DNA of 64,000 nucleotides from an uncultured bacterium (lineage in GTDB: Bacteria; Zixibacteria; MSB-5A5; UBA10806): positions 180,770-244,769 of the forward strand of contig CBEUCH010000004.1 in assembly GCA_965541585.1 (NCBI GenBank), written 5' to 3'. The first letter of the stretch is position 1; every line of letters begins with the position of its first letter. The notes beneath the pieces were generated by a model. That model was not told the origin of the DNA. It worked only from the letters and a program-made list of their open reading frames with translations, and searched no databases. Shown here piece after piece: positions 50,376-62,967 of this stretch. Made by a program: the position numbers and the translations under genes.

Positions 50376-50891
50376 ATGAAAGTTGGCCAATACAAAATAG
50401 ATAGAAGCTCCTGGGACGAGATAAATATCGACGGCTGGTTTAGAGCTCTCATCCCCCCTAATTGGGAGGTGGAGGATGACGAGGAGGTCATCGTATTCGA
50501 TCCCGCCGGTTTCGGCGAGATGAGCATCAACCTGTTTACTAACGTTGGCCCGAATAGCAAAAAGCAGAAAGCATCGAGCATGATAGCCGACTGGGCCGAG
50601 GAACTCAGCTTGCTGGACGGTTACGAGGTCTCCATATTCAAACGTACTCGCAGCCTGTTGATAACGTCGACCGAGTTCGTTTCCAGTGAGCCGGAGGGAG
50701 ATATTGTTTACTGGAGAATATTTCCCGTTATCGGTCGGAAAATAAGTCTGGATATAAATTACAGTTGTCCGCTGGAAGACCGCGATCGCGAGGAAGCGGT
50801 CATCGAGGGGATAGTCGACTCAATTGAGTTAATTGAACCAACGCGCAATACACGGGTCCCTCGACGACACAGGAAAGCCGCAGGAGAATAG
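50376..50891 (+). CDS. Hypothetical protein (PsbP/Mog1-like pattern possible)
   Basis: GGAGG RBS; WF...PPNWE pattern; 171 aa. Confidence 0.6.
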   Translation: MKVGQYKIDRSSWDEINIDGWFRALIPPNWEVEDDEEVIVFDPAGFGEMSINLFTNVGPNSKKQKASSMIADWAEELSLLDGYEVSIFKRTRSLLITSTEFVSSEPEGDIVYWRIFPVIGRKISLDINYSCPLEDRDREEAVIEGIVDSIELIEPTRNTRVPRRHRKAAGE

Positions 50892-54989: not shown

Positions 54990-56126
54990 TCATTTATTCT
55001 TCGGCAGCAGAACTTTGCCGTTGCGTGTCACCATGGTCGCCTGAATGATTTCATCATCGGAATCAACCTGCAGAGCGCCGTCCTTGACCAGAAGCGCCAG
55101 GAAACTCGTTATATTCTTCGAATACATCTGGCTGGCATGATAGGGAACCGAGGATGGCAGGTTCATGGGGCCTGCGATACTGACCCCGCCTTCATCGACC
55201 GTTTGGCCGGCTCTGGTCAGCTCGCAGTTGCCGCCACGCTCGGCGGCGAGATCGATGATCACCGAGCCGGGTTTCATACCCTTAACCATTTCGGCGGTTA
55301 TCAGCACCGGCGCCTTCTTGCCGGGCACGGCGGCGGTCGTGATGACAACGTCGCTGTCAGCCACCACTTTCGTCATCATCTCTCGCTGTTTGCGTAAGAA
55401 TTCCTCCCCCATCTCCCTGGCGTAGCCGCCGGTTGCCTCCGCATCTTCGGTTTCCAACTCCATTTCCACGAATTTTCCACCCACGCTCTCGACCTGTTCT
55501 TTAACTGCGGGTCTGACATCATAAGCGCGCACAACCGCCCCCAGCCTCTTCGCCGAGGCTATTGCCTGCAGGCCGGCCACCCCGGCGCCCACCACGAATA
55601 CATGAGCCGGTGCAATCGTTCCGGCCGCCGTCATCATCATGGGAAACATCCTGGGGAGCGCCTCGGCAGCCAAAAGCACTGCCTTATAGCCGGCGATAGT
55701 TGCCATCGATGAAAGCGTGTCCATGCTCTGAGCCCTGGTGATGCGCGGCATCAGCTCCATGGCAAAGGCAACGACCCCTTTGCCAGCTAAAAGCTTCAGG
55801 CTTTCCGGAGCGCTCAACGGTTCCATCATGCCAATAACCACCTGATCTCTTTTCAACAGCTCCAGATCGGCCTTGCCCTCTGCCGGGTTGGCTCCCAGGC
55901 CACGGACATAGAGCATGACATCTGCCGCCGCGAAAACGTCGGATCGACTCGAGACTATCCTAGCGCCCTTTTCCTCGTAGGCGGAGTCAGGGTATCCGGC
56001 TGCCGTACCCGCTCCGGCCTCGATTGCGACATTAAATCCTGCCTTCTTGAGCGCGGCGATATTGGCCGGGACCAGCGATACCCTGTTTTCGCCGGGAAAT
56101 GTCTCTTTGACGACACCAGCAATCAT
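54990..56126 (-). CDS. pntA: NAD(P) transhydrogenase alpha subunit, part 1 (domain I)
   Basis: KETFPGENRV, PRITRAQSMD, GAGVAGLQAI and DLAAERGGNC motifs; start ATG 56126. Confidence 0.96.
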   Translation of the reverse strand: MIAGVVKETFPGENRVSLVPANIAALKKAGFNVAIEAGAGTAAGYPDSAYEEKGARIVSSRSDVFAAADVMLYVRGLGANPAEGKADLELLKRDQVVIGMMEPLSAPESLKLLAGKGVVAFAMELMPRITRAQSMDTLSSMATIAGYKAVLLAAEALPRMFPMMMTAAGTIAPAHVFVVGAGVAGLQAIASAKRLGAVVRAYDVRPAVKEQVESVGGKFVEMELETEDAEATGGYAREMGEEFLRKQREMMTKVVADSDVVITTAAVPGKKAPVLITAEMVKGMKPGSVIIDLAAERGGNCELTRAGQTVDEGGVSIAGPMNLPSSVPYHASQMYSKNITSFLALLVKDGALQVDSDDEIIQATMVTRNGKVLLPKNK

Positions 56127-56627
56127 GATCGAATTCCTTTTTTTATCGTCTTGCCAGATCTCCTGGCAGTAAGGCTCGGCATTGCCTGTCCATCCTGAGA
56201 TCTTTTGAAAAACGTGACCCCGGTTAAAGGAGTTCCTGCTCCGGGAAAACTGACTACTCCAAAACGAGAGTGCAAATTGTATGAATGACAACAAATGTCA
56301 AGATCTTTTCTCACGATTGTTTTGTGAGCACAGAGAACATTTTTTATTCTCACGACTTTGCAGATGGCGGAATTTAGTTGCGTGCCTTTTTCACAAACCT
56401 TATATTAATCTATATCGTGGATCAATGGGAATCCGCGACAGTAGCGAAGTAGCTCCCATAGTAAGCCTGTGCCCCCGGGTTGTTGACACAGCAGGCTGGC
56501 GAATTTTGTCAGCGGTGCTGTAAGAATATATTGTTTGAAATCCTAAACCAGGGCCTAAGAGGTGGTGAATCGGCTGTTATTCATTTAGGGCCTTTGAATT
56601 CTAAATCTCACATAAAGGAGGCATTTT

Positions 56628-56948
56628 ATGCCGTTTACAGGAGACGAAGATCACAGTATGAGCCGTGAGGAGGCTGCCAAGCTGACGAAGAGTTACCGCG
56701 ATTCAGCCCCAGCGGGAGCGATGCTGGGCGGTTTTTTCGGCAAGACGGCCCTCTCCGACATCCTGAATCAAGCAGGATGTGTGGGTATGCGAATCTATAA
56801 CGCTCTGCTCGGCGATGGTAAAGCCACGTATGTTCTGGTCGGCGTTGATTCCGAAGGTGAGGATATGGAAGATGGCGAGATAGCTGAAATCATGTTTCCC
56901 TGTCCGCCAATCTGTCCAGGGGGTAGCACATTAAATGGAACTGCATAA
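56628..56948 (+). CDS. Small acidic hypothetical protein with C-terminal PCPPxC motif
   Basis: AAGGAGG RBS; ...ILNQAGCVGMRIY...LVGVD...FPCPPICP; no signal peptide. Confidence 0.85.
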   Translation: MPFTGDEDHSMSREEAAKLTKSYRDSAPAGAMLGGFFGKTALSDILNQAGCVGMRIYNALLGDGKATYVLVGVDSEGEDMEDGEIAEIMFPCPPICPGGSTLNGTA

Positions 56949-57163
56949 GTAGCGATCTTTTAAAGAATTACCGTAGGTCCTGGCAGTGGTCTAAAGCGGA
57001 GATGTATAAAATTACTCCTTGTTTTTTGGGGAGTTTGATTTATATTCTTACTGTCTAGAGAATGCCCGAGTATTTAGTTAATTTCTGGTGGTTGCGGAGT
57101 ATTTCAATCTGTAGTCCATGCATGGTAGCATTTGACAGGAGGCCTCAGGCGATCTAAATAACT

Positions 57164-57778
57164 ATGGGAAATTATTTGTCGCTTTACATAGTCTATATGG
57201 CATCGGTCATGGCACCCGCATCGATCGGTATCTACGGTTATCGCCAACTGAAATCTGAGATGAAATTACTCCTGGCTTTAATGGTAATCACCATAGCCGT
57301 GGATAGTTTTACCCTTTATCTGGCCATTGATGGTCGTAACACCAATTGGGTCCATCACATATATCTGCCGGTCGAATATGGTTTGATCGGCCTTATCTTC
57401 TCCCGATGGCAGAAGACGACTTTCAATAAGAATGTTATACTTTTCAGCATACCTCTGTTTGTTATCGCGTGTGTCATGAGCGTGATTGTTTTTCGCAACC
57501 TGGATCAGTTGAATGTGTTCACGACCTCGCTGTCATGTATCCTCTATGCGGTCATATCGTCCTACACCCTCTATCATTTGCAGAAAGATGATTCCGGTTC
57601 ACTATACAAGGATTATCGTTTCTGGGTGAGTTCGGCTCTTCTGTTGTATTCGGCAGGGGCTCTATCATTTTTTGTATTTACGAAGGTTTGGCCGGATGTC
57701 TGGTATGCTCATCTGGGGGTTAATGTTATCGTTTATATCACCTTTGCCATAGGTTTCTTATGTCATATACGTCGTTAG
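57164..57778 (+). CDS. Hypothetical seven-transmembrane protein
   Basis: Seven hydrophobic helices in 204 aa, short loops, no soluble domain. Confidence 0.8.
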   Translation: MGNYLSLYIVYMASVMAPASIGIYGYRQLKSEMKLLLALMVITIAVDSFTLYLAIDGRNTNWVHHIYLPVEYGLIGLIFSRWQKTTFNKNVILFSIPLFVIACVMSVIVFRNLDQLNVFTTSLSCILYAVISSYTLYHLQKDDSGSLYKDYRFWVSSALLLYSAGALSFFVFTKVWPDVWYAHLGVNVIVYITFAIGFLCHIRR

Positions 57779-58647
57779 AACTCATCTGGGGCATAATAGC
57801 GATATTTACGGTTTTGCTGATTCTTGCAATCAGCGTCTCGGCCAGCATCGTGGTCCACAGCAGGAAAATAAAGGAATCCGAACGTAAGTTTCGCCTTTTG
57901 TTTAACAGGGTATTCGATACGCTGTTGTTAATGGATGAAAGCGGACGGATAGTCGACGCCAATGAGTCGGCCTGCAGGTTGCTGGGCTATTCGAAGGATG
58001 ATTTGCTGAAGCTGAATCTGCGAGAGTTAGTTGCCGACGAAAAATATACGGCGTTCCAAGCTGATTTGGAAAAAAGTATGGATGAGGGATTGGATTATTT
58101 CGGCGAGGCCAGTTTAGTCGGCAGAGGGAAAGATGTTATCCATGTTGAAGTCGGCGGGACGAGCATAAATATTGGCGGGAATGCCTATATTCTGGGGAGC
58201 TTTAGAGACATTACGGCACGCCGGGAGGCACAGGAGGCCTTAAGAAAGAAGAATATAACGTTAAAAGAGGTTCTGGCCCATCTCGAAGAAGAGAAGATGA
58301 AGATTAAAAAGCAGGTTGCCAGCACCGTAGATCAGGAGTTGTTACCGGCCCTGAACAGGCTCAGGGCTCAAGACGGCACCTTAAATATGACCTTCTACAA
58401 TCTGCTGAGGAATAACCTGCAGGAGTTGGGCGAATCCTCCGGCGCTATACTGCACGCCTATTCGAAGCTCTCTCCGAGGGAGGTGGAGATTTGCAATCTC
58501 ACCAAGAATGGCGCTACCTCCAAAGAGATTGCCGATACCCTCAATATAACCCTGGCCACCGTGGGCAAGCATCGAGAGAATATCAGGCGGAAGTTAATAT
58601 TGTCCAACAAGCATATCAATCTGGCCTCGTTTTTGAAGGAACTGTAA
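57760..58647 (+). CDS. Membrane-anchored PAS + LuxR-HTH transcriptional regulator
   Basis: N-terminal TM; SERKFR...DANESACRLLGYS...RDIT (PAS/PAC); coiled coil; LSPREVEIC...TSKEIADTLNITLATVGKHRENIRRKL. Confidence 0.9.
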   Translation: MSYTSLELIWGIIAIFTVLLILAISVSASIVVHSRKIKESERKFRLLFNRVFDTLLLMDESGRIVDANESACRLLGYSKDDLLKLNLRELVADEKYTAFQADLEKSMDEGLDYFGEASLVGRGKDVIHVEVGGTSINIGGNAYILGSFRDITARREAQEALRKKNITLKEVLAHLEEEKMKIKKQVASTVDQELLPALNRLRAQDGTLNMTFYNLLRNNLQELGESSGAILHAYSKLSPREVEICNLTKNGATSKEIADTLNITLATVGKHRENIRRKLILSNKHINLASFLKEL

Positions 58648-58816
58648 GGCGGCAATATCAATTTGCCGACGATCGGCCATACCGGCTGCATCTGGATTGC
58701 CCGCGGCCGGCGATGAATTAATTTCTCCTTCAATCCTAAAAATTAGTAGATATTGATAACAGACGAAGCAGTTTCATGCTATCGATAAATATTCTCCTCT
58801 CCATTGAAAAAACCTC

Positions 58817-58845
58817 TTGACAGCGCATGCCCATTTTTTTACATT
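58817..58845 (+). promoter_or_regulatory. Sigma70 promoter of groESL
   Basis: TTGACA-17bp-TACATT. Confidence 0.8.
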
Positions 58846-58858
58846 CGGCGAAACAATT

Positions 58859-58885
58859 TTAGCACTCGATCAAATAGAGTGCTAA
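58859..58885. promoter_or_regulatory. CIRCE element (HrcA operator)
   Basis: Perfect TTAGCACTC-N9-GAGTGCTAA upstream of groES. Confidence 0.97.
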
Positions 58886-58976
58886 CGAACAAAGTTAATT
58901 TGTTGAATTACAATCGATTGTAAGGAGAGGGCAGATTTATTCCCGCTTCTAATGAGGATGTTAAGGAGGAAAGGAC

Positions 58977-59261
58977 ATGAAGATTAAACCGCTGTCTGAC
59001 AGGGTAGTAATTGAGCCTTTGGAGGAGATGGAGGTTAAAAAGGGTTCCATCATCATACCAGACACCGCCAAGGAGCGTCCCATGCATGGCAAGGTGATCG
59101 AGGCCGGGCCCGGCAAGACCGAGGATGGCAAGAAGATTCCGATGGAGGTCAAAAAAGGTGATAAGGTTCTCTATGGCAAGTACTCCGGCACCGAGGTCAC
59201 AATCGATGATACGGAGTACCTGATTATGCGGGAATCGGATGTTCTTGCGATCATCTCGTAA
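58977..59261 (+). CDS. groES: Co-chaperonin GroES
   Basis: [19 protein letters not shown] and GKYSGTEV motifs. Confidence 0.98.
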
Positions 59262-61040: not shown

Positions 61041-61198
61041 TTAGATAACACATTGTTAATCAGTAAGTTATATGGAAATCAACCAAAGCACGGCCGTTCA
61101 TCATTTATTTTATTTTCGCATAATATGTAGAACTATAGAATTATTTGCTTGATTTTTCGTAATAATATGCGATAATAGCATTGAGGAACCGAATCCAA

Positions 61199-62353
61199 AT
61201 GTTTGCAGTAAAGCTTAAAGAGCTTAGAAAAAGCCTAAAAATAACCCAGACTGAGATAGCCAAACATCTTGGAATAGCGCAAGATGCTGTTTCAAAGATA
61301 GAAAGTGGTAAGCGCACTTTAACAAGTTACGAAATATTTAAAATCGCTAGGGCACTCGATATCCCCATAAGGTATTTCTACGGTGAAATTGAATTGGATA
61401 AAGTTATAGGTTTTTCCTTAAGGGCGACCGAAGATCTGACGCTGCAGGACCAAGAAAAAATTCCAATATTAAGGCGAATAGCCAATAGGTATTATGACAT
61501 AGAAGATGTTTTGGTTCATCCATTCGAAAATATTCTCAGAAAATATGCTGTAGTAGATGATAATGTTTTGCGAATTAGGGAAATAGCAATTGAGGAAAGA
61601 AAAATATTGGGTTTTGACAATGTAGAACCCATAACAAATTTAGCAGAACTATTGAGATCCTATAATATCATAATCTTAGAACCAGTGCTAGAATTCGCAA
61701 TAAATGGTCTTTTTCTGACTCTTGATCGTGACAGGTTTTTAATAGTGGTGAATCACGATACTCCCCCTTCTAAAAGAAATTTCACTCTAGCTCATGAGTA
61801 TGGGCATTATTTATTCCATCGAGGTAATTCATTCAACGCAGTCACAACTGATATTGATAATCCTGATAGTATGAATTTTCACGAAAAAATAGCTAATGCA
61901 TTTGCTGCCGAGTTTTTGATGCCCAAAGAAAGCCTTGTAAATTTAAGCATAAGCGATGAATCTATAGCTCTATATATGCATAATTATAAAATAAGCAGGG
62001 CAGCATTGATTAATAGACTGTATAGTCTGAGAAAAATAGATGATTATGGGAAAGACTATTATTTGAATGAATTTAGACCTATGGATGGACTAGAGAATCT
62101 TGGGATTGATAGCCCGGAAGTTCGCTGGTTTAGAGAATCCCATAATATAAAAAAACAAGACAACTCTACACGAAAGGAAAGGAAAAGGCTGAGGCCACGG
62201 GATTTACTATCGGACGGATACATAACCGCCATACTGGACGCTTATGAGAGGGGGTTAATAACATACAATAAAATAGCTGATTATCTGTTTATTAATGAAA
62301 ATGAATTGAAGAAAAAAGTGAAAAAGAAGGAGGTGGAAGATGAAATCTTTTAG
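61199..62353 (+). CDS. XRE-HTH + ImmA/IrrE (M78) metallopeptidase
   Basis: LKELRK...TQTEIA..LGI....SKIESGKR HTH; RNFTLAHEYGH (HExxH) and EKIANAFAAEFLMP motifs. Confidence 0.92.
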   Translation: MFAVKLKELRKSLKITQTEIAKHLGIAQDAVSKIESGKRTLTSYEIFKIARALDIPIRYFYGEIELDKVIGFSLRATEDLTLQDQEKIPILRRIANRYYDIEDVLVHPFENILRKYAVVDDNVLRIREIAIEERKILGFDNVEPITNLAELLRSYNIIILEPVLEFAINGLFLTLDRDRFLIVVNHDTPPSKRNFTLAHEYGHYLFHRGNSFNAVTTDIDNPDSMNFHEKIANAFAAEFLMPKESLVNLSISDESIALYMHNYKISRAALINRLYSLRKIDDYGKDYYLNEFRPMDGLENLGIDSPEVRWFRESHNIKKQDNSTRKERKRLRPRDLLSDGYITAILDAYERGLITYNKIADYLFINENELKKKVKKKEVEDEIF

Positions 62354-62367
62354 CAAGAGAGGGCACT

Positions 62368-62967
62368 GTGACCCTAAGAAGAATTGTATTAGCTGATGCT
62401 GCAGTACTAATAGGTCTTGTAAAGCTAAATTTCCCCAGTTTATTACAACATTTATCACAACATTATAATTGGGATATAAATATTACTAAAAACGTAGAAG
62501 ATGAATGTAAGGATTTGGTAACGGCGTCGCTGGTCAGATCAATGATAAGAAACAAAAGCATAAGAATACTATATGAGTCTAGTTTTGAAGTGGCAAATAA
62601 TATCAAGGAATTGGATAAAAGAATGGAGCCGGGTGCGGAGATTGAGCTATTTGCTATAGCTAAGTATAGGAAGTATGATATACTTACGGATGATCTAAGC
62701 AACACAAATGTCTATTTTCGCAATTATCCTATGGATAGAGGGCAATTTTGGGTTTATAATTTATATCATTTATTGTATTTAGCATATAAAGCAAGAATAT
62801 TATCATTAGGTGATATTGAATTGAGCCTTCGTGAAAGTCATAAAAGTGGCATCAGGACACTCAGCAAATATATCTTGGAGCATAATTTCCAAGAATATTG
62901 TGAAAGAATTGATGAATATATAGAACATCACATAGATCCAATAGACACGAATAAATTTCTATTGTAA
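62368..62967 (+). CDS. PIN-domain-like protein (putative nuclease/toxin)
   Basis: IVLADAAVLI (N-terminal Asp), VEDE, GAEIE and ILTDD acidic pattern typical of PIN folds. Confidence 0.65.
   Translation: MTLRRIVLADAAVLIGLVKLNFPSLLQHLSQHYNWDINITKNVEDECKDLVTASLVRSMIRNKSIRILYESSFEVANNIKELDKRMEPGAEIELFAIAKYRKYDILTDDLSNTNVYFRNYPMDRGQFWVYNLYHLLYLAYKARILSLGDIELSLRESHKSGIRTLSKYILEHNFQEYCERIDEYIEHHIDPIDTNKFLL

Follow-up and report, generated by a model that had tools for sequence, protein, structure and literature searches.

In the sensory rhodopsin/Htr system, a receptor with a retinal-binding lysine is paired with a two-helix transducer that carries a chemotaxis domain. The agr system (AgrD/AgrB/AgrC) comprises a small gene with a variable cysteine-containing segment, located beside a multi-helix sensor and a regulator, and adhesion GPCRs possess a tethered peptide agonist. 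In LiaFSR an intramembrane-sensing kinase system is equipped with an accessory membrane protein. The same arrangement is described for BceS/BceAB in PMC8534201, which also names AgrC as the membrane sensor of staphylococcal agr. The main text of PMC10269533 treats as "cocomponent" systems those transmembrane transcription regulators that have an associated protein (ToxR/ToxS, TcpP/TcpH, CadC/LysP, VtrA/VtrC). Sensing through an accessory protein is thus a principle already known.

Here we describe a cassette of three genes (a, b and c) of an uncultured Zixibacteria bacterium. The window, i.e. the whole stretch of DNA that was analysed, has a length of 64,000 nucleotides and belongs to contig C4 of a 3.5-Mb genome. 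The list of open reading frames with their translations confirmed that the three genes are co-oriented on the plus strand, as proposed in the initial annotation (Table 1). They are flanked by a divergent transhydrogenase-like gene on one side and a groES-like gene on the other, both named by reading of the translations. The genome holds a second copy of the cassette (a, b and a TM-PAS-PAS-GerE gene), located on contig C21; its a protein is 59% identical.

Table 1. Features of the cassette (positions refer to the window)
Feature	Position	Strand	Basis or remark
Imperfect palindrome, CTGACA-N5-TGTCAG type	56496..56512		upstream of a; weak candidate operator for c
Shine-Dalgarno sequence AAGGAGG of a	56615..56621	+	sequence
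Gene a, leaderless acidic 106-aa protein of an unnamed family	56628..56948	+	predicted alpha/beta domain
Candidate ligand segment: E87-x5-P93 tail of a, including the C92/C96 pair	56886..56915	+	conservation
Terminator-like hairpin in the 215-bp a-b gap	57014..57034	+	consensus scan; putative
Gene b, stand-alone seven-helix protein, 204 aa	57164..57778	+	GPCR-type fold, N-out/C-in (predicted)
Gene c, single-pass transmembrane transcription regulator, 295 aa	57760..58647	+	TM, PAS, His-less DHp-like coiled coil, LuxR/GerE HTH
TM helix of c, ~7 residues outside	57781..57855	+	hydropathy
PAS domain of c (~residues 47-153)	57898..58218	+	PF13426 E 3.4e-13, PF00989 E 3.9e-10
Coiled coil of c, HisKA_3 H-box register, Ala at the His position	58237..58455	+	hhalign
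LuxR/GerE HTH of c (residues 236-284)	58465..58611	+	PF00196 E 1.8e-11

A strong ribosome binding site of similar kind precedes a in most of 19 relatives. The palindrome upstream of a agrees with its motif at 10 of 12 positions, and matches of at least 10/12 occurred in 5 of the 19 upstream regions (shuffle mean 0.2), the motif having been derived from the same 19 regions in which it was scored. Genome-wide, its matches were not enriched between genes (15 of 107, 11% being expected), and therefore no regulon of c was called. The consensus scan yielded eight promoter-like sites compared to 5.7 expected, and a hairpin with a T-run comparable to that in the window was seen by reading in two of five a-b gaps of relatives. 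An Rfam scan of positions 56000-59100 did not give any match. Elsewhere in the window, an inverted repeat (TTAGCACTC-N9-GAGTGCTAA; 58859-58885) lies upstream of the groES/groEL-like genes and matches the CIRCE/HrcA operator. The genes at 61181-62967 form a low-GC (34%) pair and resemble an insert of toxin-antitoxin or regulatory type; by reading, the first encodes an HTH protein containing HExxH and the second is PIN-like. At 50376-50891 an acidic protein of 171 aa without Pfam match is encoded, whose neighbour was read as type III pantothenate-kinase-like. Right after the second cassette, four small proteins (130-145 aa) sharing signal-peptide-like starts and a TrmB regulator are encoded at C21:35659-37970 (-) (L236); these genes are possible targets of that cassette.

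To judge the linkage of the genes, the best 80 of 215 confirmed a loci were inspected. Gene b followed a directly in 77 of them, while at the remaining three fewer than 250 bases of the contig were left after a. The association of a and b is far beyond chance. To avoid selection bias, 251 genomes of the Bacteroidota, the phylum of a Flavobacteriaceae genome, were searched as well. There, b was present in 62 genomes, often in several copies, and a in 36, all of which were among the 62; b lay within 700 bp of 53 of the 59 a matches, six being without a nearby b. An a match was located upstream of 52 of the 138 b matches. The other 86 were read individually: 58 had a candidate small gene upstream, five followed another b and six an unrelated gene, and 17 had no upstream candidate, were situated at a contig end or could not be resolved. 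By an iterated HMM, which gave no false match among 1,830 own-genome decoys, 43 of the 58 small proteins joined the a family and 15 did not. At least six b loci showed no a-like gene upstream, and c was missing beside three a-b pairs of the Zixibacteria. In this phylum, a was detected in 15 of 201 genomes, belonging to three families. The order a-b-c was retained in Bacteroidota, Ignavibacteria, Gemmatimonadota, Marinimicrobia, Calditrichota, Edwardsbacteria and Zixibacteria at b identities of 10-30% across phyla. Since the sampled genomes are kin, none of these linkage counts are independent. The co-occurrence proposed in the initial annotation, including pairs ahead of histidine kinases in Bacteroidota, was encountered in several phyla, in most cases with a histidine kinase gene next.

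The third gene could be retrieved at 71 of the 77 a-b loci. Classified from the top five Pfam matches per gene, 57 encoded HisKA_3 and/or HATPase domains, three a hybrid kinase-receiver, one GGDEF plus HD and eight PAS plus GerE; one product showed only PAS and one had no match. Of 59 fourth genes, 31 of regulator size were scanned, all with a receiver domain (31/31) and 30 also with GerE. A single hydrophobic helix near the stop of b starts 85 of 90 third genes of a-b loci. The one-component PAS-GerE form was confirmed at 16 loci, all within one clade of the Zixibacteria. The 15 rows of this form in a quick tree built from 95 b proteins, where the 'HK' label was the default for rows not checked by Pfam, all fell into one group (SH-aLRT 84), which also takes in two Zixibacteria rows lacking c. 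Because these rows group together, it is likely but not proven that one lineage-specific replacement gave rise to the one-component form. The existence of this form demonstrates that a and b together with one helix are the conserved core, while the output is swappable, as had been suspected from the window: it may be a histidine kinase, a hybrid kinase, GGDEF/HD or a PAS-LuxR HTH protein.

The composition of c reported initially, one TM helix, PAS, coiled coil and LuxR HTH in a gene overlapping b by 19 bp, was borne out. Among signalling domains, the Pfam search returned PAS and GerE only; HisKA, HATPase or receiver domains were not matched. Alignment of the TM, PAS and coiled-coil part with the kinases of the family by hhalign gave a probability of 99.3 and placed Ala187 opposite the H-box histidine. 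With a TM helix and a DNA-binding domain in one chain, neither kinase nor receiver, and alanine instead of the phospho-acceptor histidine, c has the architecture of a transmembrane transcription regulator and not that of a HisKA_3 kinase. The same coiled-coil/HTH output also occurs on a soluble GAF-PAS protein of the same genome (C3:182067-184802; L235). In metagenomes, 65 of 80 matches to this output were without the c-type TM helix, and the genes for these 65 proteins, soluble or truncated, never had b upstream, as opposed to 13 of 15 single-TM c genes (b missing at two). As this output also resides on soluble proteins, that of c appears to be a ready-made module recruited to the a-b input. 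For the same reason, an origin of c by local deletion between the kinase and the regulator of this cassette, which we also considered, is not needed. The protein at C3:182067-184802 and loci L250-L316 represent a large soluble GAF/PAS family ending in the His-less coiled coil, for which Pfam holds no model of its own, and the LuxR HTH. At two loci (L240, L241), a single-TM c lies directly after an rpoD-like gene in the absence of a and b; a relative has the order rpoD-a-b-c.

The structure model of b (pLDDT 94.7) comprised seven helices. In a wide structure search, designed GPCR folds scored highest (Z 13.7), followed by the adhesion GPCR ADGRF1 as the top natural match (8g2y; Z 13.0, rmsd 3.9, 196 residues aligned, 7% identity), values of Z ~13 being close to the ambiguous range of the search tool for helical bundles. 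The rhodopsin Kin4B8 was also matched (Z 11.8, rmsd 3.8, 199 aligned), and the matches listed by Foldseek were GPCRs and rhodopsins, none with E <0.001. The charge bias (K+R 9.4 on loops 1/3/5 and the C-terminus vs. 3.0 on the others) points to an N-out/C-in orientation. Model and alignments agreed with the initial description of seven TM helices with D47, H64/H65, E71, H183 and N187. They also agreed on the missing retinal-binding lysine in TM7, lysine not exceeding 3% in any column from 181 to 199 (alignments of 90 and 95 proteins). The best-conserved polar positions, E/D47, H65, E71, Y162, H183 and N187, sit in the outer half or the middle of the model. They are conserved at 56-89% (H65 56%, H183 60%, N187 77%, E71 78%), and in the wide alignment no column reached 90% apart from the start methionine. 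Owing to this limited conservation, the modelled polar site would less resemble a catalytic site than a variable pocket facing outward. In a comparison of 21 close relatives, variability was somewhat higher in the outer half than in the inner one (0.82 vs. 0.90).

Neither Pfam/NCBIfam nor sequence searches of the PDB gave a significant result for b. At E 0.1, HisKA_7TM, 7TMR-DISM_7TM and MASE were not among the 18 Pfam families matched by 90 b proteins, and nine divergent b proteins likewise lacked a named 7TM sensor domain of Pfam. A plasmid collection searched with b contained no match. Fusions of b to a kinase were looked for and not found among the 138 b matches; 136 of these reside in frames of at most 274 aa, and the two long frames are weak matches that appear unrelated. 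At L148-L151 (G296:C1, G400:C7), two or three b genes occur in tandem, with one a before and one kinase after them. A single extended b with a LuxR-HTH-like tail was found at L227:3456-4283 (-) (G023:C228) in a genome with 9% contamination (E 1e-6 to the own profile, no Pfam match); nearby on the opposite strand lies a TM-PAS gene without any output domain.

The initial description of a as an acidic protein with a strong ribosome binding site and the motifs GCVGMRIY and LVGVD proved correct (pI 4.27; 16 D/E vs. 7 K/R). A profile search yielded 2,580 clusters at 50% identity. The model of a was confident (pLDDT 90.6), and among 48,161 chains its best fold match had a Z of 3.6 (rmsd 4.0, 51 aligned), no chain reaching Z 5; the best E-value of Foldseek was 0.44. 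Sequence searches of the PDB gave nothing significant. Pfam/NCBIfam searches with a and b, extended to 19 divergent a and nine divergent b proteins, gave just a lipoprotein-leader match and weak unrelated ones. In the ESM Atlas, the sole matches were Bacteroidota-rich clusters without a name. By a crude hydropathy test, 76 of 208 a homologues carry a hydrophobic leader (31/93 single-domain, 17/57 longer and 28/58 divergent proteins). The term cytoplasmic used initially therefore still suits the copy of the window, which is leaderless like about two thirds of the close family, and does not suit the family, about one third of whose members have a leader. The paralogue on C21 possesses a hydrophobic leader of 14 residues behind a good ribosome binding site. 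The cassette genes read at a-b loci were a, b, c and a regulator; an exporter or protease gene linked to a was not among them.

Of 53 tandem two-domain a proteins, 51 carry a Cys-Pro tail on one or both repeats; in about 29-32 of them a single repeat has it (32 by script, about three being artefacts of the span scanned). The frequent retention of a single tail suggests that a acts as a dimer and that one tail per dimer is needed. Two a-like genes precede a Ser/Thr kinase-TPR gene instead of b and lack the tail proline. They are located at L232:4403-4687 (-) and L233:3900-4214 (-), with a sigma-54 activator on one side, the kinase-TPR gene on the other and no b nearby; the a domain is reused there in a different signalling setting.

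The PCPPIC motif of a had been called terminal, which is not the case, ten further residues following it. The invariant feature of the family is a [D/N/E]-x5-Pro tail: P93 is present in 205 of 205 core sequences, and 194 of them have E or D at position 87. Both C92 and C96 exist in 197 of the 205; six sequences lost both and two lost one of them, C92 being absent in seven. C51 varies independently of this pair. Within the last 32 residues, [D/N/E]-x5-P was found in 48 of the 58 divergent upstream proteins compared to 14% of 1,366 controls, and in nine of the 58 the chain ends exactly on the tail proline (0.7% of controls). CPxxC is contained in just 19 of the 58, the Cys pair being absent in 39, and by reading at least 15 distant relatives have a Cys-free tail. 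In 26 close relatives, only one other 4-mer is more variable than residues 88-91 (identity 0.41 vs. 0.74), which are mostly of hydrophobic types and give rise to 18 tail variants. Since C92 and C96 are lost jointly while P93 is invariant, the pair would fit a dispensable disulfide.

How might the three proteins work together? Gene order, overlap and topology make it very probable that b and c act as a pair, and we are similarly confident that a acts through b. As to the nature of the contact, we lean slightly towards the tail of a being what the pocket of b reads. Taken as a whole, the explanation that we favour, at about even odds, is a plug-in input module in which b would read the tail from outside and signal to the helix of c. 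In such a module b would be a receptor with an outward pocket and no output of its own, and would pack against the lone TM helix of c, a protein itself devoid of a sensor. As the dedicated protein partner of b, a (probably a dimer) would offer its variable [D/N/E]-x5-Pro tail to this pocket, acting as agonist or plug, and the Cys pair, where present, may close a disulfide loop over the proline. A change in occupancy would then shift the helix of c and, via PAS and the His-less dimerisation helix, the LuxR HTH, so that c could switch transcription without phosphorylation, judging from the known behaviour of PAS and LuxR domains. Because the a protein of the window is leaderless and no exporter is linked at the loci read, a may never meet the outward pocket; it could get out by lysis, membrane damage or non-classical export. 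A far-reaching version, which we consider doubtful, is that in FCB phyla a GPCR-fold receptor reads the Pro-ended tail of a new-fold protein in allele-specific pairs, with a kinase, a c-di-GMP enzyme or a transcription factor as output. A leaderless a would reach the receptor only on breakage of the cell or inner membrane, thus constituting an alarm for kin damage or membrane integrity.

In the main rival to the tail as ligand, protein a would make (as a small enzyme) or capture (as a binding protein) a diffusible small molecule sensed by b, the tail being a structural edge strand. The tail may indeed be structural, as a strand of the modelled a domain runs through residues 90-92. Near-invariant polar residues (Q48, R55, Y57, D79) would also suit an enzyme, the occurrence of close homologues with and without leaders would suit a membrane-crossing product, and no linked processing or export gene was seen at the loci read. 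However, distant a proteins keep little besides the tail (a G-x-R/K-x-Y/F-type strand is present in only 23 of 58), no enzyme fold was matched, and even near-identical proteins differ in which hydrophobic residues stand between E87 and C92. This explanation is possible, though on the unlikely side.

An AgrB- or CAAX-like role of b, as an intramembrane protease that clips the tail of a or cuts c to free its DNA-binding part, is improbable. TM7 of b harbors H183-x3-N187, presumably resembling the HxxxN motif of CAAX proteases, besides two acidic residues in the protein, and the nine a relatives ending right at the proline look as a cut product would. Against this, the candidate residues of b are conserved to only 56-78%, none of 90 b proteins matched CAAX/Abi or AgrB at E 0.1, and the listed fold matches were GPCRs and rhodopsins. 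Moreover, most partners at the position of c are kinases, for which no release is needed. Among the best 50 matches of either structure search there was no CAAX/Abi or CREST hydrolase, though one may rank lower.

Just as improbable is a role of a as a cytoplasmic redox or metal sensor that uses its Cys pair and targets either b, at its inner face, or c, at its PAS domain. The prevalence of the pair in the core family, the leaderless a of the window and the PAS domain of c agree with it. This idea, which had been raised initially, was weakened by the joint loss of C92 and C96 in six of eight losers, the ever-present P93 and the Cys-free tails of distant relatives; in addition, C51 varies on its own, many a members are exported according to leader prediction and many kinase partners have no PAS. 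That a, b and c are mere neighbours without mutual action, as the few orphans of each gene and the 215-bp gap with its hairpin might indicate, is very improbable in view of the gene order kept over seven groups at such low b identity.

The module is common, yet both a and b stand outside Pfam, NCBIfam and, by sequence, the PDB, and the pair would explain the source of the signal for many sensorless one-helix kinases of these phyla. The Zixibacteria form is its smallest version, leading from input to DNA binding with three genes and free of phosphorylation, and for this reason it lends itself best to reconstruction with a reporter. Should the tail prove to be the ligand, there would be a bacterial parallel of peptide-activated GPCRs. 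A full-text literature search (titles and abstract openings; subscription papers mostly outside its reach) retrieved no description of the a-b-c module, and the a-b input module, which is real and widespread, is apparently undescribed.

As in sensory rhodopsin/Htr, a separate seven-helix protein, here the putative receptor b, adjoins an overlapping gene for a membrane transducer, and the modelled b has the seven-helix N-out/C-in GPCR-type fold. It differs by the missing retinal lysine, and c has one helix and a PAS/kinase or HTH output. With adhesion GPCRs b shares the seven-helix topology, and a might be compared to a folded partner whose last strand could be the ligand; this is an analogy only, given 7% identity, no GAIN match of a, separate genes and no G protein. 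The agr system resembles the cassette in its small gene with a variable Cys-containing segment adjacent to a multi-helix membrane sensor and a regulator. However, a is a folded 106-aa domain and no short propeptide, b is separate from the kinase, and the hosts of a-b-c are two-membraned. An exporter or AgrB enzyme was found neither as a match of b nor among the cassette genes read, and the cysteines, invariant in the agr ring, are dispensable in a, as the CPxxC and C92 counts demonstrate.

The kinase forms of c differ from BceS and LiaFSR in having one helix, not two, and a partner that is neither a transporter nor LiaF; moreover, the a-b input drives non-kinase outputs too. Like BceS (PMC8534201), they lack an outer sensor, and the signal presumably passes via contact of the membrane helix with the partner. 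The one-component form of c resembles the cocomponent systems. The main text of PMC10269533, which does not mention LuxR, GerE or Zixibacteria, describes single-pass, membrane-anchored one-component DNA-binding regulators that, like c, seem to depend on the product of a neighbouring gene. Compared to the regulators covered there, the HTH of c is C-terminal and of LuxR type, an inner PAS domain is present and an outer domain is lacking; its partner is the GPCR-fold seven-helix protein b, joined by the small third protein a. Taken alone, c is a new form of a known kind of protein, the transmembrane transcription regulator, and the greater novelty appears to lie in the a-b input pair.
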